The notes below the pieces were generated by a model that was given only the letters and a program-made list of their open reading frames with translations, was not told where the DNA came from and ran no database searches. Made by a program: the position numbers and the translations under genes. Positions 2,593-40,446 of a DNA stretch of 40,446 nt are shown here, piece by piece (the stretch's first letter is position 1; each line of letters opens with the position of its first letter). The DNA is from Candidatus Melainabacteria bacterium. GTDB lineage: Bacteria > Cyanobacteriota > Vampirovibrionia > 2-02-FULL-35-15. Location: the NCBI GenBank assembly GCA_016178265.1, contig JACOTS010000052.1, positions 1 to 40,446 of the forward strand, in the 5' to 3' direction.

Positions 2593-3778
2593 AATTATCT
2601 TTTAGAATAAACATTCCATCTTTTACTTCATAAATTGCAAATCCAGGGCCTTCTAAATCCCCTTTTGAATTAAAAGATAACTTTCCTAAAGCACCATTAA
2701 ATTCATTTATGTTTTGAATTTCCTTAGCTATCTTATCCGAACTTTTCTCTTTTACTTTTTCTATAGCAGAGATAAGTATATTAGTAGCATCATATGCTGC
2801 TGCTGAATAACTTCCAAGTTCTTTTTTGTATTTCTGCTTATATTTTTCTACAAATGACCCATCTTTTACCGGAAGTGATGAGATAACTAAGGCTCCCTGT
2901 GCTGCTTCACTGGCACAATCTATGAACTCTTGATCAAACACTCCTTCGCTTCCAACAAAAGCCGTTGTAAGTCCTGACTCTCTAAGTTCTTTTAGAAACT
3001 TTCCAGCATCACCATATTCTCCAACAAAAAATATTACTTCCGGAGATTTTTCAGTAACTAGTTTTACCTCTGAAGAATAGTCACTTTTTCCAACTCTATA
3101 TTTTTCATACAAAATAACATCAGGTGCGGTTTCTGAATCTTTACTCAATCTTCCTAAAAATTCAGATGCAAGGCTTGAACCATAAGGTCTGTTATTGTAT
3201 AAAACTCCTATCTTTTTAAATCCTTTTTCTTGAATAAGATCAGCTAATATTTCTCCTTGTTTATCATCCCTTCCTATGGTCCTAAAAACATAGCCTTTTA
3301 CTGCATCCCTTTCAGTAAAAATTGGACTTGTTGAACCTGGTGAAATTTGAGGAATTTTTGCTTTTGCATATATTTCAGAAGCAGGAATTGAAATATCAGA
3401 GTTTAGATGTCCAATTACCCCAAGTACCATAGCATCAACCAAGTCTCTTGCTCTCCAAGTGGCATCTCCAGGAAGCCCCCCATCATCAACTTTTATAAGT
3501 TCAATCTGTTTGCCATTTATTCCACCCTTTTCATTTTTTATATCCACTGCAAGTTCTGCACCTCTAATTATTGAAAGTCCTAGGGCTTGATATGGTCCTA
3601 TTTGAGGAGCAACTACAGCAATTTTATAAATACTCTCATCTTTTTTTTCAACTTCAGCTTGAGTATTATTGGGTTTCTCTTTTACTTGAGATTTTTGATT
3701 TTTATGACATGCCGAAAGAATAGTTAAAGCAAAAACAAGTGAAAGTAAAATTAAACTTAATCTACCAGCTTTTATCAT
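2585..3778 (-). CDS. ABC-type branched-chain amino acid binding lipoprotein (LivK/PBP type 1 family)
   Basis: Lipoprotein signal (LSAC). YKIAVVAPQIGPY...GGINGKQIELIKVDDGG is typical of Leu/Ile/Val-binding proteins. Paralogue of the next gene. Confidence 0.8.
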   Translation of the reverse strand: MIKAGRLSLILLSLVFALTILSACHKNQKSQVKEKPNNTQAEVEKKDESIYKIAVVAPQIGPYQALGLSIIRGAELAVDIKNEKGGINGKQIELIKVDDGGLPGDATWRARDLVDAMVLGVIGHLNSDISIPASEIYAKAKIPQISPGSTSPIFTERDAVKGYVFRTIGRDDKQGEILADLIQEKGFKKIGVLYNNRPYGSSLASEFLGRLSKDSETAPDVILYEKYRVGKSDYSSEVKLVTEKSPEVIFFVGEYGDAGKFLKELRESGLTTAFVGSEGVFDQEFIDCASEAAQGALVISSLPVKDGSFVEKYKQKYKKELGSYSAAAYDATNILISAIEKVKEKSSDKIAKEIQNINEFNGALGKLSFNSKGDLEGPGFAIYEVKDGMFILKDNSK

Positions 3779-4942: not shown

Positions 4943-5863
4943 CTAATTATCAACCCCTTTTCTAATTCTATCTAATTCCTCAGAAGAAGTAATAAGCTTA
5001 ACAGGCAAAAATCCTTCTTGAACAACCACATCTTGTCCTTCGGGACTTAAAACATAATAAATGTAAGCAAGCCCAATGTCCGTTGAATCCTTTTTTATTG
5101 CATAATATAAGTCTCTAAACAAAGGATACTCTCCTTTATAAGCTGCTGCATAAGATGGGACTACTTTATTAACTGAAATTGCTTTAACCTTATTATCAAG
5201 ATAATTAAATGGCAAATAACCAAGTCCATATTTCAAGTTAGCAATATTTGCTTTCATTTCCGAACTAGAGTTGACTACCACTGATTGCAAAGTGATTGGT
5301 GTGCCGGGCTTATTTTCTTCTTTAGATTTACCCATAACTAATTCCATAATTGCAGCTCTTGTTCCTGCGCCAGCAGAATCATTAATAAGAAGTATTGGCT
5401 TATCAAACGGCAAGCCAAGTTCTTTCCAATTTATAATTTCTCCTGAAAGAACCTTTCTTAGATCTTCTATTGAAATATCTTTTATTGGATTTGAGGGATG
5501 AACTACAATAGCAATAGCATCACGTGCTATAACAAATGGTTTTAATTCTTGTTGTTCATCAAAAGACAGTTTTCTTGAACTTGCACCAACATGTGCAATA
5601 TTGTTAAGTACTGCGTTAATCCCTGCTGTTGAGCCACCGCCTTGTACTAACACTTCAACCCCAACCTCTTTTCTATAATTAGTAGCAAGATGTTCAGAAA
5701 GAGGAAGCAAGGTTGTTGATCCTACCAGTACTAGTCTAGGGGACTTAGCAAAGGACTGAGTACATAGGATTGAGAATTGAGTTAAAAGTGCAAATACTAA
5801 TAAAATAGTGGATATGATTATTAATTTTCTCTTGTTAAATCTTAATCGCTTAATTCTCATCAT
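4943..5863 (-). CDS. pstS: PstS-family phosphate-binding protein (PBP type 2)
   Basis: Signal/TM segment, then VGSTTLLPL ... VQGGGSTAGI motifs of PstS-like binding proteins. No pstCAB genes are adjacent. Confidence 0.7.
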   Translation of the reverse strand: MMRIKRLRFNKRKLIIISTILLVFALLTQFSILCTQSFAKSPRLVLVGSTTLLPLSEHLATNYRKEVGVEVLVQGGGSTAGINAVLNNIAHVGASSRKLSFDEQQELKPFVIARDAIAIVVHPSNPIKDISIEDLRKVLSGEIINWKELGLPFDKPILLINDSAGAGTRAAIMELVMGKSKEENKPGTPITLQSVVVNSSSEMKANIANLKYGLGYLPFNYLDNKVKAISVNKVVPSYAAAYKGEYPLFRDLYYAIKKDSTDIGLAYIYYVLSPEGQDVVVQEGFLPVKLITSSEELDRIRKGVDN

Positions 5864-5894: not shown

Positions 5895-7649
5895 ATGCTA
5901 ACTCAACTTACCATTTCAAACTTTGCGATAATTGATGAACTAGAAATTAATTTTAATAGTGGTTTGATCGTACTAACAGGTGAAACAGGTGCAGGAAAAT
6001 CAATAATTATAGATGCATTGGATTTTTTATTGGGGGCAAGGGGAAGCTTAGATTTTATAAAAAATGGTACAAGCAAAGCAAAGGTAGAAGGGATTTTTGA
6101 AATTAGTGACAAACTTTCAAGAATCTTACATAATTGGTTTAAAGAAAATGGTTTTGATGAGCTCGATAGTCAAAATCAATTAATAATCTCAAGAGAATTA
6201 TCACAAAATGGCTCTAAAGCAAAAATTAATGGTTCAATTGCTAATCTTTCACATCTTACCTATGTCAGGGAATATATTTTTGATATTCACGAACAAAGCA
6301 GTCATATTGATTTGCTAAAGATTGAAAAGCAAATTGAAATATTTGATTCTTTCGGAGATATTAGCCATCAAAAGCTTTTAAGTAGTTACAGAAATTTATT
6401 TGAAGAATTTACAATCATAAAAAATAGGCTAAACAGTCTTACAGAAAGCTCAGAAGAAATTGCAAAAAAAATGGATTTCTTAAAATTTCAAATAAATGAA
6501 ATAGAAGAAGCAAATATAAGTGATTTAAAAGAAGAAGAAACCTTGCTTGAACAAAGGAAAAAGCTATTAAACAGCAAAGAACTGTATGACAATGCTTCAA
6601 AAATAAATGAGTTAATAAGTGGCGAAAATCCTTATAACCTAACAAAGCTACTTACAGAAATCAAAAAACTAATTGCAAGCTCAAGCTCTTTTGACATATT
6701 GTTTGAGCCTTATAAAGAAGTTATTGAATCTGCTAGTGATAGCATGAAAGATTTATCCTCATTTACATCAAGTTACACAGAAACCATTCAAGAGCCTGGT
6801 GAAAACTTAGATGAAATAGAAGATAGGCTTGATACTTTTTACAGACTAAAGAAAAAATACGGAAATACTCTTAAAGATATAAAAGGATCTTTAGAAAAAA
6901 TGGAAGATGAACTAACAACATATACAGATCCAAGAAAATCTAAAGAAAGTTTAGAAAAGGAATATAAACAAAGAGAAGAAGAGATTAATCTGCTTGCAGA
7001 CAAATTAACCAGATCAAGAGAAAAGCTAGCACAAGAATTTGTAAATAAAGTTAATGAGGAGCTTTTAACTTTAGGATTTAAAAGTAAAAACAGCTCAAGT
7101 AATTTTCCTTTATTTGTAGTTGAGTTCTTAGATTGTCCTTTAAGCAAATGTGGCAAGGAACAAATTCAATTTTTGTTTACAGCAAATCCTGATGAAGAGC
7201 CAAAACCCTTGTTAAAAGTAGCATCTGGTGGTGAGCTTTCCCGAATAATGCTTGCAATTAAGTCACTTGTAGGTTCTTTTGGATTTATAAATACAAAAAC
7301 CATGGTTTTAGATGAAATAGATATTGGGATAAGTGGAGAAATTGCATCTTCTGTAGCAAAAAAATTGTATAAGATTTCAAGAAGCAATCAAGTTATTTGC
7401 ATAACACATCAACCCATTGTTGCAGCAATGGCTGATGAACATTTTGAGGTAATAAAAGAGATAGAAGATGGTACTACTTTTGTCAATATAAGGCAACTAG
7501 CAAATGATGAAAGATGGAATGCCTTAGTTTCACTACTTGCACCAGAGTTAAAATCAAAAGAAATTTCTCATGATGCAAAACAATATGCAAAATCTCTGTT
7601 AGATAATGCAAATAAAATAAAAAACAAAAAAGAAGATGCATTAATATGA
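5895..7649 (+). CDS. recN: DNA repair protein RecN
   Basis: N-terminal Walker A (GETGAGKS), long coiled-coil middle, C-terminal SGGELSRIMLAIK signature and Walker B (LDEID). Confidence 0.9.
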   Translation: MLTQLTISNFAIIDELEINFNSGLIVLTGETGAGKSIIIDALDFLLGARGSLDFIKNGTSKAKVEGIFEISDKLSRILHNWFKENGFDELDSQNQLIISRELSQNGSKAKINGSIANLSHLTYVREYIFDIHEQSSHIDLLKIEKQIEIFDSFGDISHQKLLSSYRNLFEEFTIIKNRLNSLTESSEEIAKKMDFLKFQINEIEEANISDLKEEETLLEQRKKLLNSKELYDNASKINELISGENPYNLTKLLTEIKKLIASSSSFDILFEPYKEVIESASDSMKDLSSFTSSYTETIQEPGENLDEIEDRLDTFYRLKKKYGNTLKDIKGSLEKMEDELTTYTDPRKSKESLEKEYKQREEEINLLADKLTRSREKLAQEFVNKVNEELLTLGFKSKNSSSNFPLFVVEFLDCPLSKCGKEQIQFLFTANPDEEPKPLLKVASGGELSRIMLAIKSLVGSFGFINTKTMVLDEIDIGISGEIASSVAKKLYKISRSNQVICITHQPIVAAMADEHFEVIKEIEDGTTFVNIRQLANDERWNALVSLLAPELKSKEISHDAKQYAKSLLDNANKIKNKKEDALI

Positions 7650-9430: not shown

Positions 9431-9651
9431 GCAAAACAATTTGTAGGATTTGTCCAATTTACTTGGCAAATCCGGTAAGGCGAAAATAAGGAAGGAACGA
9501 GCCGAGTGTTCGCACGAGACGAGCAAAATAAAGTGAGGAAAGACAAGGATAAAATCGGAGAAGAAAAAATAAGCTTTTTGTGTGATTCATTCACCAAAAA
9601 GCGTCGAGAAAGGGGAGCGAGCTGAGCATTCGTGCGAAGCGAGCGGTAAAA
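9431..9651 (+). repeat. structured repeat cassette, two tandem type-1 units
   Basis: Unit 1: hairpin H 9446-9473, GA hairpin S 9495-9526. Unit 2: H 9573-9602, S 9615-9646, then TAAAA and the rpmJ ATG. The reverse complement closely matches 14250-14398 and 12468-12550. Confidence 0.9.
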
Positions 9652-9765
9652 ATGAAACACAGAGCATCAGTAAAAAAATTATGTGCAAAGTGCAAAATTA
9701 TAAGACGCAAAGGCCGGGTAGTGGTTATTTGCGAAAATCCTAAGCACAAGCAAAAACAGCATTAA
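9652..9765 (+). CDS. rpmJ: 50S ribosomal protein L36 (not in the ORF track; 37 aa)
   Basis: Manual translation gives [37 protein letters not shown], the L36 zinc-ribbon pattern, in the canonical position after infA. Confidence 0.9.
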
Positions 9766-12467: not shown

Positions 12468-12595
12468 TTTTTAATACCGCTCGTTTCGCGCTAACGCTCA
12501 ACTCGCTTTTTTCCTCCAGCGCTTTTTGGTGAATGAATCACACAAAAAGCTTATCTCTCCTTTTTCCCTAGTTTCTATCTCTTACCTCTTATCTC
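12468..12595 (-). repeat. structured repeat cassette, type 1, fills the pntAB-pntB spacer
   Basis: In RNA (minus) orientation: heptads 12573-12600, H 12521-12550, GGAGG (revcomp of 12513-12517), S 12477-12506, UAUUAAAAA, then the pntB AUG (12467). Confidence 0.9.
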
Positions 12596-12880
12596 TTATT
12601 TCTTCTTAAACATCTTAAGCATACGATCAGTTACTGTATATCCACCAACTACATTTATTGTTGCAAAAACTATTGCTACACACCCAAGAACAGTAGCTAA
12701 GTTTGTTTCCCCATATCCTGCAGATAGAAGTGCACCAACAACCGAGATGCCAGAAATTGCATTGGAACCTGACATAAGAGGAGTATGCAATGTAGGTGGA
12801 ACCTTGGTAATAACTTCAAACCCAACAAAAATTGCAAGTACAAGAATATAAAGTGTAATTAAAAATTCTCCAAATATCAT
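12596..12880 (-). CDS. pntAB: NAD(P) transhydrogenase subunit alpha part 2 (membrane part)
   Basis: 94-aa hydrophobic protein with HTPLMSGSNAISGI, the typical split alpha2 subunit, between pntAA and pntB. Confidence 0.9.
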   Translation of the reverse strand: MIFGEFLITLYILVLAIFVGFEVITKVPPTLHTPLMSGSNAISGISVVGALLSAGYGETNLATVLGCVAIVFATINVVGGYTVTDRMLKMFKKK

Positions 12881-13091
12881 TTTAATATCGCTCGTTTCGC
12901 ACGAATGCTCAACTCGCTTTTCCTTCCCGGCGACTTTTGCCGAGTAAATCGGACAAAAGTCTTAGGTTTTTTCTGATTCCTATTTCCTAATTCCTATCTC
13001 CTTATTTTATACCGCTCGCCTCTTCGCTTTTACCTTTTTCTTTTCCCATTTTCCCTGATTCCTATCTCCTAGCTCCTATTTCCTATCTTTT
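12881..13091 (-). repeat. structured repeat cassette, type 1 plus a partial second unit, fills the pntAA-pntAB spacer
   Basis: S 12888-12917, H 12932-12961, heptads (TCCTAnn)x4 at 12978-13005, a partial ACCGCTCGCC unit at 13011-13030, and heptads x4 at 13060-13087. The pntAB AUG (12880) follows GAGCGAUAUUAAA. Confidence 0.9.
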
Positions 13092-14249: not shown

Positions 14250-14420
14250 CTTTTACCGCTCGCTTCGCACGAATGCTCAGCTCGCTCCTTATTTTCGACG
14301 CTTTTTGGTGAGTGAATCACACAAAAAGCTTATTTCCTACTTTTCTACTTTATCGGATTTGCTGGATAAACCAGACAAATCCTACAAATTGTTTTATGCT
14401 CTGATCTTCTTCTGATTCCT
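14250..14420 (-). repeat. structured repeat cassette (type 1) forming the pntAA 5' leader
   Basis: S 14256-14285 (same core as 9617-9646), H 14300-14329, a second H 14355-14382, the shared TACAAATTGTTTT edge, and a pyrimidine tail up to 14420. GAGCGGUAAAAG precedes the pntAA AUG. Confidence 0.9.
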
Positions 14421-14483: not shown

Positions 14484-14622
14484 GATAACTGCTCACCTAA
14501 TAGAAGCAATCTTGTGGGTGACACCGGAAGGGAGGGGGTCCATGAGCAAGGTACGTAGCTCATGGAGGGTGACCTGTAGGTGGCAGGACCCACTAAGTTA
14601 TAGCTAGCAAGGTGAGCAGTTA
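14484..14622. other. 139-nt long imperfect hairpin (candidate structured RNA or MITE-like element), class unknown
   Basis: A perfect 13-bp closing stem ATAACTGCTCACC/GGTGAGCAGTTAT. Inner stems CTTGTGGG/CCCAC(T)AAG and CCATGAGC/GCTCATGG. GC-rich core. A partial third copy of the arm (GGTAACTACTCACC) sits at 14756-14769. Confidence 0.35.
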
Positions 14623-14635
14623 TAAAAGGAACTTT

Positions 14636-14921: not shown

Positions 14922-15503
14922 ATGGCAACAGAACTTACAGAAAACCAAACCGGATTTTTAAACGGGCTTAAAAAGCAATACAGAAAAACCCCGCTTCCAT
15001 CCATAAGACAAATAGCAGAAGATCTTGGTTTTAAATATCACAATTCTGTTCAACACTATCTTGAAATATTAATGTTTCAAGGCATTATTAAAAAAATCGA
15101 TGATTTTTTATATCTAGATAAAAATTTGTTTGGTTTAAAGATCTTTGATTCCAGGGTACCTGCAGGGCTTCCTGCTCAAAGCGATGATAGCTATGAAGTT
15201 TTTGATTTTGATGAATTCATGAACATTGATAATGAGAGAGGATTTATGCTTAGGGTCTCCGGAGATTCTATGATAGACGCTGGAATACATGATGGTGATT
15301 TAATTACAGTAGATACAAAAATCAGGCCCACACATGGGCTTATAGTTGTTGCAATAGTAGATGGTGGTTATACAGTTAAGTACTTACGCAAAAAAGGAAA
15401 TAAATATTATTTAAAAGCAGCTAACCCAAAATATAATGATATTCACCCAGAGCATGAGTTTAAGGTGGTTGGTGTGGTAACCGGTTCTATCCGTAAATTT
15501 TAG
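14922..15503 (+). CDS. lexA: LexA repressor
   Basis: N-terminal winged HTH, an Ala-Gly cleavage site (VPAGLPA), and the S24 peptidase Ser (SGDSM) and Lys (TVKYL). Confidence 0.9.
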   Translation: MATELTENQTGFLNGLKKQYRKTPLPSIRQIAEDLGFKYHNSVQHYLEILMFQGIIKKIDDFLYLDKNLFGLKIFDSRVPAGLPAQSDDSYEVFDFDEFMNIDNERGFMLRVSGDSMIDAGIHDGDLITVDTKIRPTHGLIVVAIVDGGYTVKYLRKKGNKYYLKAANPKYNDIHPEHEFKVVGVVTGSIRKF

Positions 15504-28954: not shown

Positions 28955-29029
28955 GGGCCCTTACCTCAGCCTGGATAGAGGACATGGCTACGAACCATGG
29001 CGTCAGGAGTTCAAATCTCCTAGGGCCCT
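28955..29029 (+). tRNA. tRNA-Arg (anticodon ACG)
   Basis: Manual cloverleaf: acceptor GGGCCCT/AGGGCCC, D stem CCTC/GAGG, anticodon stem CATGG/CCATG with loop CTACGAA, T arm AGGAG-TTCAAAT-CTCCT. No encoded CCA. Confidence 0.9.
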
Positions 29030-29030
29030 A

Positions 29031-29159
29031 ACTTAAATAGCCCAGCAAGCAAAGGATTTTCTGTTAAGTGAAAATCCGGAGCGTCGAAAATTAATATAGA
29101 CCATACCAGATAATGCAAAGTTGGTTTTAGTCTCTGCTAAAACCAGCGGTTATAAAAGC
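29031..29159 (+). repeat. 129-bp insert built of cassette-like modules between the tRNA and its duplicated 3' half
   Basis: Hairpin 29054-29077 followed by GGAGCGTCGAAAA (compare the cassette linker GCGTCGAGAAA). Hairpin 29122-29145 followed by GCGGTTATAAAAG (compare the cassette 3' end GAGCGGTAAAAG). Confidence 0.6.
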
Positions 29160-29208
29160 ACATGGCTACGAACCATGGCGTCAGGAGTTCAAATCTCCTA
29201 GGGCCCTA
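29160..29208 (+). repeat. exact 49-nt duplicate of the tRNA-Arg(ACG) 3' half (matches 28982-29030)
   Basis: Base-by-base identity from the anticodon stem through the acceptor end plus 2 nt. It ends 1 nt before the stop codon of the convergent gene. Confidence 0.9.
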
Positions 29209-35098: not shown

Positions 35099-35761
35099 TT
35101 ATAGATTACAGGAATATAATGAGCTCTTCCATTTTTCTTCTACAAGATTAGAATTATTGTTAAAAACGTATTTATGCCAAAAGAGGACCTTTGTAACAAC
35201 TGCTTCAATTAAACGTTCTTTAGAAAAGTTAGAAAAAGAATCGTTTGGCATTATTTCTTCAAGTGAAATAGGTTTTACAGTCAAATCATTGATTTCTCGT
35301 TTAGCTTTATGAGTATTTATTCCTATACCGGTAATAAGTGCTGAAAGTTTATTTTCTTTAAGTCTTGTTTCAACCAATATCCCGCCTAATTTTTTACCTT
35401 CTATATAAATATCATTCAACGGTTTTAGTTGTGTATTTATATTACATATTTCTTTAATTGCTTCAACGCATGCAATTCCTGCTGATTTGGTAAATTCATT
35501 GCGAGCCGAAGGCGAAGCAACCCCGAGCGAGGTTGCTTCATCACTAATGCTCCTTGCAATGATCTGAACAACCGATAAATAAATTCCTGCACCCTTTGGA
35601 GAAATCCATATTCTTCCTCTAGTACCTTTTCCACTGGTTTGTTCATTAGCTACTATATAAGAAGTGTTTGTAATTTTGCCAGAATCAATTAACCGTTTTG
35701 CTTCTTCATTTGTAGAGTCAACTGTATCTAAATAAAATTTGTTTTGTACTTCTAAGCTCAT
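35099..35761 (-). CDS. birA: biotin--[acetyl-CoA-carboxylase] ligase (group I, no HTH)
   Basis: GKGTRGRIWISPKG (GRGRxGRxW-type biotin loop) and KPLNDIYIEGKKLGGILVE. Contains a GC-rich insert (see repeat 35501-35539). Confidence 0.8.
   Translation of the reverse strand: MSLEVQNKFYLDTVDSTNEEAKRLIDSGKITNTSYIVANEQTSGKGTRGRIWISPKGAGIYLSVVQIIARSISDEATSLGVASPSARNEFTKSAGIACVEAIKEICNINTQLKPLNDIYIEGKKLGGILVETRLKENKLSALITGIGINTHKAKREINDLTVKPISLEEIMPNDSFSNFSKERLIEAVVTKVLFWHKYVFNNNSNLVEEKWKSSLYSCNL
35501..35539. repeat. GC-rich hairpin-containing insert, in frame within birA
   Basis: GCGAGCCGAAGGCGAAGCAACCCCGAGCGAGGTTGCTTC, 26/39 G+C by my count. Perfect 9-bp stem GAAGCAACC/GGTTGCTTC. It carries the GCGAGC/GAGCGAG words of the cassette S module. 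Confidence 0.6.
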
Positions 35762-39643: not shown

Positions 39644-40446
39644 GTGTTTTTGGATCATTTAAGAAGCTCTCTGATATCTTTTTGGATCGATAGCTCCGGT
39701 GGTCCAGAAAAATTATGCAAACAATCTTTTTTTAGTATAAATCCAAAGTACTACTTATATGGCTCCTTAAATGAAATCACGTTGGAAGATTGTGAAACTG
39801 GAGCAATTTCATACATTCCCGGAAACTGTTTTGATACTCTCGAAGAAAAATTGAAAGAGGAGAAGAAAAACAAAAATGGCATCTTTGTGGGTTACGTATC
39901 ATATGATTTGTTCAAAGCAAATTTAAAGGCGATTAGGTATCCCAATTTTTTCTTTGCTTTTTTCGACAATTATTCCACATTCGATCCTAATCTCTTAGCT
40001 CCCAATCCTCTTGCTTCTTATCCCTTACCTCTTACCTCGATTTCTTCTAACATGAGTGATGAAGAATATTTAGAAAAAGTAAAACAAATAAAAGAAGAAA
40101 TCAAAGCTGGCAATGTTTATCAAGTTAATTTAACTAGAGAGTATTCAATTCTAAGCTCTAAGCTCCAAACTCCAAACTCAGAACTGGATCTTTATTTCAA
40201 CCTGAGAGAAGTTTCTCCAAATCCATATGGATGTTTCTTTAAAACTCCTTTTGTAAGTATACTTTCTAGCTCACCTGAGGAATTTCTCTATATAGGACCA
40301 GCCGCCCAACAGAGTTGGGCGAGCCTTGCCACTCCTCAATCCTATATTATTCGTACTCGCCCAATTAAAGGAACTCTTCCAAAAGGAATACATAACATTG
40401 ATCCAAAAAACAAAGCAGAAAATTTAATGATTGTTGATCTTGAAAG
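39644..40446 (+). CDS. pabB: aminodeoxychorismate synthase component I (partial, runs off the window)
   Basis: Manual translation in the frame of 39644 (GTG) gives ...GIFVGYVSYDL...AGNVYQVNLTREY...SSPEEFL...RTRPIKGTLPKG...NLMIVDLE. Absent from the ORF track because there is no stop in the window. The start codon is uncertain (GTG 39644 or TTG 39650). Confidence 0.8.
   Translation, partial: MFLDHLRSSLISFWIDSSGGPEKLCKQSFFSINPKYYLYGSLNEITLEDCETGAISYIPGNCFDTLEEKLKEEKKNKNGIFVGYVSYDLFKANLKAIRYPNFFFAFFDNYSTFDPNLLAPNPLASYPLPLTSISSNMSDEEYLEKVKQIKEEIKAGNVYQVNLTREYSILSSKLQTPNSELDLYFNLREVSPNPYGCFFKTPFVSILSSSPEEFLYIGPAAQQSWASLATPQSYIIRTRPIKGTLPKGIHNIDPKNKAENLMIVDLE
40016..40036 (+). repeat. heptad array (TCTTATC CCTTACC TCTTACC) in frame inside pabB
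   Basis: Same heptad type as the cassette tail at 12573-12600 (TTCTATC TCTTACC TCTTATC TCTTATT). 21 nt equals 7 codons. Confidence 0.6.
40151..40185 (+). repeat. five tandem heptads (CTAAGCT x2, CCAAACT x2, CAGAACT) inside pabB
   Basis: Read directly from the sequence. Encodes ...LSSKLQTPNSEL... in a variable segment after YQVNL. Confidence 0.7.
40296..40343 (+). repeat. GC-rich hairpin-containing segment in frame inside pabB
   Basis: GACCAGCCGCCCAACAGAGTTGGGCGAGCCTTGCCACTCCTCAATCC. Stem GCCCAA/TTGGGC (40304-40320), a GCGAGCC word, and a CTCCTCAATCC tail. It lengthens the segment before RTRPIKGT. Confidence 0.5.

Follow-up and report, generated by a model that had tools for sequence, protein, structure and literature searches.

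An in-frame palindromic repeat in the biotin protein ligase gene of a Melainabacteria-like bacterium

How does a G+C-rich hairpin come to lie inside the coding sequence of a biotin protein ligase, and what kind of sequence is it? The question is raised by a stretch of 40,446 nucleotides, hereafter the window, which comprises positions 1 to 40,446 of contig JACOTS010000052.1 (assembly GCA_016178265.1) from a Candidatus Melainabacteria bacterium. Its minus strand carries, at 35099..35761, a birA-like gene for a biotin protein ligase (BPL) of 220 amino acids, in which a first-pass annotation of the sequence noticed a hairpin and proposed that it is a selfish palindromic element, inserted in frame and tolerated. 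In our assessment it is likely that positions 35495-35563 are a degenerate, non-autonomous palindromic repeat that was fixed in a loop of birA in the ancestor of a clade and is translated in frame within a functional ligase. The original proposal is upheld by the absence of the element from most orthologues, by copies at the same codon in near relatives, by a match to a profile of the repeat family, by a dN/dS ratio of 0.20 in the gene and by a structural model that places the insert in a loop.

The palindromic element and its parts

The segment first noticed, 35501-35539 (GCGAGCCGAAGGCGAAGCAACCCCGAGCGAGGTTGCTTC), does contain 26 G+C among its 39 nucleotides, the joint highest value for a 39-nt segment in the window and one reached at 7 of 40,408 positions. 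It also contains the perfect 9-bp stem that had been reported, formed by GAAGCAACC (35514-35522) and GGTTGCTTC (35531-35539) around an 8-nt loop. The predicted RNA fold of the segment with this stem has a z-score of -2.5 on the plus strand and -3.7 on the minus strand. Translation of the minus strand yields EATSLGVASPSAR within the 220-residue open reading frame (ORF), which confirms the in-frame position between the motifs GKGTRGRIW and KPLNDIY.

However, an extent of 39 nt proved too narrow. The 9-bp stem is the inner stem of a larger element, in which outer inverted repeats TTCATTGCGAG (35495-35505) and CTTGCAATGAT (35553-35563) enclose it, with modules of 8 nt and 13 nt between the inner stem and the outer repeats. 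The unit is therefore 69 nt long (35495..35563, minus strand), or 23 codons, and encodes residues I67-E89 (IIARSISDEATSLGVASPSARNE). Its G+C content is 52%, compared with 30% in the rest of birA and 34% for the window as a whole, and the predicted fold of the entire element as sense RNA has an energy of -34.2 kcal/mol (z = -6.1). It is the only match in the window to the profile of the repeat family described below (nhmmer E 0.0015). The identity, boundaries and reading frame of the element are shown by the present analysis.

Read along the gene, the element begins with the terminal inverted repeat ATCATTGCAAG (35553..35563, minus strand), which has two G-to-A changes relative to the consensus GTCATTGCGAG of 98 family copies. 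There follows a long module of a type that we call A, GAGCATTAGTGAT (35540..35552, minus strand), which encodes ...RSISD and is a decayed form of GAGCG(T/A)AGCGAC, mostly through GC-to-AT changes. Next come the gene-5' arm of the inner stem (GAAGCAACC on the minus strand, 35531..35539; family consensus GAAGCAATC), the central loop (CCGAGCGA on the plus strand, 35523..35530), which holds the word GAGCGAG and the next G, and the gene-3' arm (GAAGCAACC on the plus strand, 35514..35522), which pairs with the first arm over 9 bp. A short module of type B, CCGAAGGC (35506..35513, plus strand), contains the mini-hairpin GCC GAA GGC. The gene-3' terminal inverted repeat, TTCATTGCGAG on the plus strand, carries the profile match; within it, TCATTGCGAG (35496-35505) matches the family exactly and occurs once in the window.

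Relative to the family consensus, one arm of the inner stem has a T-to-C change and its partner an A-to-G change, and it is because these compensate each other that the 9-bp stem is perfect. The ends of the window copy are degenerate, with GATC and ATTC in place of a CGTC tag. The element is thus a worn, partly decayed member of a long palindromic family whose ends are (C)GTCATTGCGAG...CTCGCAATGAC(G) and whose inner stem is GAAGCAATC/GATTGCTTC.

The host gene and the location of the insert

The only domain found in the 220-residue ORF is the Pfam domain BPL_LplA_LipB (PF03099; E 2.7e-18). Both of the BPL motifs are present, as GKGTRGRIW (GxGxxGRxW) and KPLNDIY (KxxND), and the sequence matches of the ORF in the Protein Data Bank (PDB) are BirA/BPL proteins. 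An AlphaFold2 model, built from an alignment of 120 sequences, has a mean pLDDT (predicted local distance difference test) of 89.7, and in Foldseek it matches the BPL structures of Staphylococcus aureus, Mycobacterium tuberculosis and Escherichia coli (E 1e-16, TMq up to 0.78).

In this model, the residues encoded by the element sit between a strand (59-67) and a helix (84-106), and residues 71-80, with a mean pLDDT of 54, are the sole low-confidence block. The insert is accordingly modelled as part of a loop, which would probably be exposed at the surface. By alignment, the position corresponds to the 138-147 loop of E. coli BirA, which lies at the dimer interface. The HMMER alignment to E. 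coli BirA contains gaps of 3 and 9 residues between GKGTRGRIW and KPLNDIY, so the statement in the first-pass annotation that the E. coli protein is about 12 residues shorter here was right.

Outside the element, the window gene and its orthologue at the locus designated L001 differ by a synonymous divergence (dS) of 0.12, with a ratio of nonsynonymous to synonymous divergence (dN/dS) of 0.20. These values show that the birA gene carrying the element is under purifying selection and alive.

Two further features of the gene are recorded here for completeness. The ligase and its relatives of about 200 amino acids have the PF03099 catalytic domain only, and the C-terminus is modelled as helical (helices 181-200 and 204-213). 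Judging from syntenic genes at a related locus, L190, and from the layout of ORFs in the window, the gene probably lies in a cluster resembling those for leucine catabolism, with a carboxyltransferase, an enoyl-CoA hydratase and HMG-CoA lyase.

Presence, absence and form of the element in orthologues

Alignment of orthologues reveals the length difference on which the insertion hypothesis depends. Among 120 homologues, the interval from GIYLS to IACVEA has 21-22 residues in 96, compared with 32 in the window, i.e., it is 10-11 residues shorter. The anomalous interval is shared with only the four nearest relatives, each of which has a different length, and in some other homologues the loop is 4 to 6 residues longer than usual. 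Most orthologues thus do not have the element, and the nearest orthologues have intact copies at the same codon.

The five carriers, namely the window and loci L001, L004, L005 and L006, have a palindrome at the identical codon. It is 69 nt long in the window, 36 nt in L001, 87 nt in L006, 93 nt in L004 and 111 nt in L005, and all of these lengths are multiples of three. The ends conform to (G/A)TCATTGC(G/A)AG...CT(C/T)GCAATGA(C/A), the inner stem in the four other copies is GAAGCAAT(C/T), and the copies translate as VIA(R/S)...(P)RND. The outer tag is CGTC in L004 and L006 and TGTC in L001 and L005, while CTC or CCC occurs where canonical copies of the family have CCA. Long hairpins are predicted for all five (z -6 to -10), and a profile of the family's arms matches every one.

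The order of the arms, designated by their modules, is A|B in the window and in L006, and B|A in L001, L004 and L005. Because the element is palindromic and the orthologues carry both orientations, its earlier description as an antisense feature says little. When the window copy is translated in the antisense direction, the product, FIASRRRSNPERGCFITNAPCND, matches the sense peptides of the proteins P0002 (VIASRANAPRND) and P0004 (...DCFVANAPCND).

The window and the L001/L127 loci have 93-96% DNA identity over more than 6.7 kb. Outside the loop, the BirA proteins of the window and L001 are 96% identical. The immediate flanks of the element are identical and its interior is unalignable; four substitutions fall within 13 nt just upstream of the element and a 6-nt indel lies just downstream. 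No recognisable element is present in the birA genes for P0017, P0010 and P0007, and the loop of P0017, LPKNTEHLNQT, is close to the general consensus, i.e., of the native type. A metagenome scan for further birA orthologues found only L127, which is equivalent to L001, and distant ligases.

A repeat family in multiple phyla

We scanned one genome per species for the exact pattern GTCATTGCGAG-N(0-25)-GAAGCAATC-N(5-35)-GATTGCTTC. This 29-base signature occurs at 120 or more loci in at least 11 phyla. Among the 80 matches whose titles were listed, the alphaproteobacteria include Bradyrhizobium, sphingomonads, Rickettsiales, Tisiphia, Micavibrio and many others, and the gammaproteobacteria include Solimonas, Halofilum and Coxiellaceae. 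Further groups among these listed matches are Bacteroidota, Chloroflexota, Patescibacteria, Zixibacteria and Ignavibacteriota, as well as Nostoc, Planctomycetes, Spirochaetes, Moduliflexus and Binatia.

From these loci, 98 full canonical copies of 70-125 nt were extracted, and they have a common architecture. An element starts GTCATTGC... and ends ...GCAATGAC. The outer repeat is 11 nt long, and at 82% of the 196 ends it is extended by a C/G pair to give CGTCATTGCGAG. The variable module is of two types, 'B' (CGnAGC) and 'A' (GAGC-nnnn-GCGAC), either of which can be expanded by a small hairpin. The inner stem, GAAGCAATCC, is followed by a free loop, and the copies show a CCA junction in the form GAAGCAATCCAG...CTGGATTGCTTC. 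Consensus arms taken singly barely fold (-5.2 kcal/mol, z -0.5, and -7.8 kcal/mol, z -0.7); a stable structure arises only when both arms pair. We therefore rejected the hypothesis that the element is a dimer of self-folding REP units.

Canonical copies look mostly intergenic. No Pfam domain is found in ten long ORFs, from G+C-rich genomes, that include canonical copies; these ORFs are probably spurious, and placement within coding sequences therefore looks uncommon in that sample. Clustering of neighbouring ORFs yielded only artefacts due to translated repeats, and no recurrent real protein family. The length is a multiple of three in 29 of the 98 canonical copies; the multiples of three in birA and pabB are thus what would be expected if selection acted as a filter. 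Rfam has no family that corresponds to the window copy or to the canonical copies, and a literature search with the DNA motifs and encoded peptides of the family gave no match beyond primers. We found no published name for the family, and no transposase beside its copies.

A second host gene is found in the genome of P0007, whose birA has no element. The same profile detects two family copies in or at pabB, located at 5601-5686 and 5990-6086 of locus L190, which are equivalent to 3464-3549 and 3853-3949 of L191. In L190, one of the two lies where the 5' end of pabB is annotated, and the second, within the gene and in frame, encodes IIARSVSDKAIAKRYEIASPAPSAPPRND; the 'A' arm in L190 pabB encodes IIARSVSDKA. 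In the window, the profile detects no copy other than the one in birA.

Proposed origin and alternative explanations

The explanation that we favor is as follows. The first half of the repeat consists of an outer (C)GTCATTGCGAG, followed by a variable module and then the inner stem GAAGCAATC(C); a loop joins it to its mirror image. Such a repeat would have become fixed in birA, in the stretch encoding the loop that connects a core beta-strand to the next helix, and the fixation would date to an ancestor of a small, uncultured clade of Melainabacteria-like bacteria. In the phase GTC-ATT-GCG ... CGC-AAT-GAC, the repeat would read VIA(R/S)...(P)RND with no stop codon, and since its length is also a multiple of three, it would be translated as a 23-residue extension of the loop. 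The palindrome would then evolve far faster than the gene: in the window, one arm would decay toward A+T while compensated change keeps the inner stem perfect, and in relatives there would be internal deletions and flips of arm order. Flipping or deletion in place, conversion from other copies, or re-insertion may each have been a route to these forms, and the remodelling may have taken place in situ through the element's own inverted repeats. The element would be neutral, 'selfish' DNA that has no function. No transposase was found that would account for the family's movement.

A number of observations weigh against this explanation. About 10 native codons (LPKNxxxxxxT) are gone in all carriers, so the event was a replacement and not a clean insertion. 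In a neighbor-joining tree the five carriers are not monophyletic. The tree and pairwise identities place P0017 near P0013, and P0010, which does not have the element, is 80% identical to the element-bearing P0003; because P0010 and P0017 are located among carriers, a single gain must have been followed by one loss or more. Taken alone, the decayed arm of the window copy has no match to the family profile. The copy in birA is the only one in the 40-kb contig, and there are no others in the 1.7-8.5 kb surrounding the other four birA copies. Finally, we found no target-site duplication in the flanks of the 98 canonical copies, and no recurrent partner gene among 769 clustered ORFs within 400 nt of them.

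Some of these observations would be accounted for if the position in birA were a hot spot at which the family had inserted, or re-inserted, several times in different lineages. We regard this as unlikely, although less so than the other alternatives. The opposite arm orders in sister genes, the presence of P0010 and P0017 inside the carrier clade, and an element interior that is unalignable between genomes that are 93-96% identical would all be natural under repeated insertion. Moreover, related palindromes lie 'in the same region' of birA in Rickettsia and Wolbachia, and the authors of that study left the question of a hot spot open (PMC3767692). However, the five copies coincide exactly in their boundaries and share the loss of about 10 native codons, for which a single event is the simplest explanation, and a flip between the element's own inverted repeats requires no new insertion. 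There is also no target motif around the 98 canonical copies, nor a target-site duplication, apart from the C/G base that extends the inverted repeat. In addition, the neighbor-joining tree is based on one protein of about 200 amino acids and is weak, with a bootstrap value of 69% for the grouping of P0013 with P0017.

A more far-reaching version, which we consider doubtful, is that the GTCATTGCGAG/GAAGCAATC family is currently active across phyla, moved in trans, and rewrites itself in place, through flips, shrinkage or replacement, at a genome divergence of about 4%. Under this version, Rickettsia, Wolbachia and Melainabacteria-like bacteria would each have acquired it independently in one and the same permissive loop of BirA. 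A site or structure would then have to direct the insertion, as opposed to random insertion followed by selection.

In principle, the element could also have been co-opted, such that the extra loop alters the behavior of BirA or an mRNA hairpin regulates birA expression. The compensated change that keeps the inner stem perfect, the persistence of the element in five diverged orthologues and the stability of the sense RNA hairpin (-34 kcal/mol) would fit with such a role. However, the encoded peptide varies wildly among close relatives: its length ranges from 12 to 37 residues, and both orientations occur. Two relatives manage with no element, and the loop in the model has low confidence and no defined structure. 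Matching arms might also result from template switching between arms instead of from selection. Co-option is therefore, in our judgment, improbable.

The first-pass annotation linked the birA element to 'cassette' words that recur in the window. The words GCGAGC and GAGCGAG are enriched (10 occurrences versus 3.1 expected, and 6 versus 0.86, respectively), and they are common to the element and to a family of repeats of about 100 nt, located at 9535-9651 (plus strand) and at 12475-12566, 12886-12977 and 14251-14354 (minus strand). That the element belongs to this family is nevertheless highly improbable. The repeats are not palindromic over their full length, have neither the TCATTGCGAG nor the GAAGCAATC motif, and are not matched by the family profile; in every case a start codon follows directly downstream, and the repeat has the orientation of that gene. 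We found no significant alignment or shared covariance model that joins them to the birA element. We therefore rejected this kinship, on account of the different architecture and the missing profile match.

These repeats, which are 68-88% identical to each other, account for several of the GCGAGC and GAGCGAG matches in the window. Each has a hairpin GCTTTTTG(T/G)TG...CACCAAAAAGC and terminates in ...GCGAAGCGAGCGGTA; a few A/T bases then separate it from the start codon of a gene oriented the same way (e.g., rpmJ at 9654). They look like a repeated 5'-leader or promoter module.

As to a chance G+C-rich hairpin in a loop whose length does vary in some other homologues, or an assembly artefact, both are effectively refuted by orthologous copies in independent JGI, Logan and ENA assemblies, by outer and inner repeats that agree with those of a family whose definition comes independently from other phyla, by the profile matches, and by fold z-scores of -6 to -10.

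Other repeats and structures in the window

A pabB-like ORF, which starts at 39644 and continues off the end of the contig, contains another in-gene hairpin. Here, 14 extra residues, GPAAQQSWASLATP, lie between SSSPEEFL and RTRPIKGT, and are absent from the close relatives L190 and L189 and from solved PabB structures. The corresponding DNA, 40295-40336 (plus strand), is the other peak of 26/39 G+C in the window. It has a perfect 8-bp stem, CGCCCAAC-AGA-GTTGGGCG (40303-40310 / 40314-40321), with an RNA fold z-score of -3.1. It does not have the terminal repeats of the birA element, so it probably represents a different family of small palindromes.

Short-repeat runs rich in C+T (CCTATCTCCT, TTCCTA...) occur in two intergenic stretches, 12562-13084 and 39990-40040. 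Translation of a similar run yields LAPNPLASYPLPLTSISS within the pabB-like ORF; it lies in the variable linker, the part of the gene in which L190 has its palindrome. Between genes, a G+C-rich segment of 147 nt (14484-14630, plus strand) has a 14-bp closing stem and lies upstream of an ORF at 14922. Its predicted minimum free energy as RNA is -63.5 kcal/mol (z -6.4), and it has no match in Rfam; it is a candidate for a structured RNA or for another palindromic element. Lastly, the 3' 52 nt of a tRNA-Arg(ACG), 28979-29030, are repeated with 98% identity 178 nt downstream, at 29157-29208. An element that is integrated here, or was excised, may have left this partial repeat as a scar of its attachment site.

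Significance

Among the ways in which essential proteins gain peptide segments from selfish DNA, in-frame palindromic repeats are a rare one. Prior documentation comes mainly from Rickettsia and from one survey of REPs, to which the present case adds a Melainabacteria-like lineage. In the unnamed family, a 29-base signature is conserved across 11 or more phyla, and no transposase is in evidence. In birA, the orthologous series (no element, 36, 69, 87, 93 and 111 nt, in both orientations, and including a pair of loci that are 93-96% identical) amounts to a natural experiment that shows the speed at which a palindrome is remodelled inside a gene under selection. We consider three aspects to be the most interesting: rapid remodelling at a fixed site within a gene, a signature shared across phyla with no partner gene, and possible convergence on the BirA loop with Rickettsia and Wolbachia. 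Annotators should also be aware that such elements yield spurious 'hypothetical proteins' and local breaks in alignments.

Comparison with known systems

The closest counterparts are the CGTC-tagged REPs (PMC3733652). These have a CGTC tag, with TGTC or CCTC tolerated, a stem starting with AT and an unpaired CCA tail; they occur mostly as inverted dimers, each unit having a stem of 8-9 bp and a loop of 4-5 nt. They are found in five phyla, mainly in alphaproteobacteria, have no link to RAYT transposases, and repeatedly occur within genes in the reading frame, with dimers encoding 20-30 residues (PMC3733652). Similarly, in the present family a C stands outside GTCATTGCGAG (G on the mirror side) at 82% of 196 ends and is followed by AT..., an ...AAT-CCA junction points toward the center of canonical copies, and the arms form inverted pairs. 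As with the CGTC-tagged REPs, the family extends to several phyla, has no transposase gene among its immediate neighbors and includes in-frame copies.

However, a single arm of the present family is not self-folding (z -0.5 to -0.7). The stem ATTGCGAG...GAAGCAAT and peptides of the form VIARS...PRND are absent from the four families of PMC3733652 and from its table of intragenic copies. Published REP peptide signatures are VIPAKAGI/DSRFRGND, VIPGLDPGIH/DGRVKPGHD and VIPVLDTGI (PMC3733652), and the strings VIAR, VIAS, PRND, HCE and LAMT do not appear in the supplementary files of that work; the present family is thereby set apart by its peptides. The host also differs from those in the survey, in that it is a Melainabacteria-like metagenome-assembled genome. 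This placement is based on BirA and PEPCK, for both of which the best named relatives come from Candidatus Melainabacteria metagenome-assembled genomes.

[quoted passage not shown] Together with Wolbachia palindromic elements (WPEs), they resemble our case as in-frame insertions that are tolerated, that occupy the same site in orthologues and whose form varies between species. In particular, orthologues can carry inserts at the same loci that belong to different RPE groups, an ATGAC motif is found at palindrome ends, and the birA genes of Rickettsia and Wolbachia hold palindromic elements (PMC3767692, Matsutani et al. 2013). The biotin-protein ligase RC0773 of R. conorii is a listed host, at residues 102-108 of 270 (PMC3733652, Additional file 3). 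Terminal ATGAC and the use of birA as a host are thus common to RPE-4/-6/-7 and the present element. RPEs lie in solvent-exposed regions, and the present insert is modelled as a low-confidence loop that may be exposed.

On the other hand, the core sequence and the bacterial phylum differ from those of RPEs, and the present family is not restricted to intracellular bacteria, being common in Bradyrhizobium, sphingomonads and Bacteroidota among the listed matches. CGTC-1 is equivalent to Neisseria dRS3 and to RPE-6, and CGTC-4 to RPE-4 (PMC3733652; Di Nocera, De Gregorio & Rocco 2013, BMC Genomics 14:522); compared by peptides, RPE-6 and RPE-4 encode sequences different from those of the present family. 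The first-pass annotation was therefore correct in drawing a parallel with RPEs while noting a different sequence, but the separation is not complete, as the CGTC/ATGAC ends of the present element are those typical of the CGTC-tagged REP and RPE-4/-6/-7 group.

Other known repeats are more distant. [quoted passage not shown] Unlike MITEs, it combines inverted repeats of 11-12 nt with no target-site duplication, and no insertion sequence (IS) was found beside its copies. Unlike GTAG REP/REPIN-RAYT systems, it has no GTAG tag at its ends and no neighboring RAYT/tyrosine transposase. The present repeat shares its ends, CCA junction, layout and in-frame behavior with the CGTC-tagged REPs, but it departs from them in the unit hairpin and its peptides are unmatched. 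For these reasons, sequence comparison points to a new family, in a new host lineage, of a phenomenon that has already been described.

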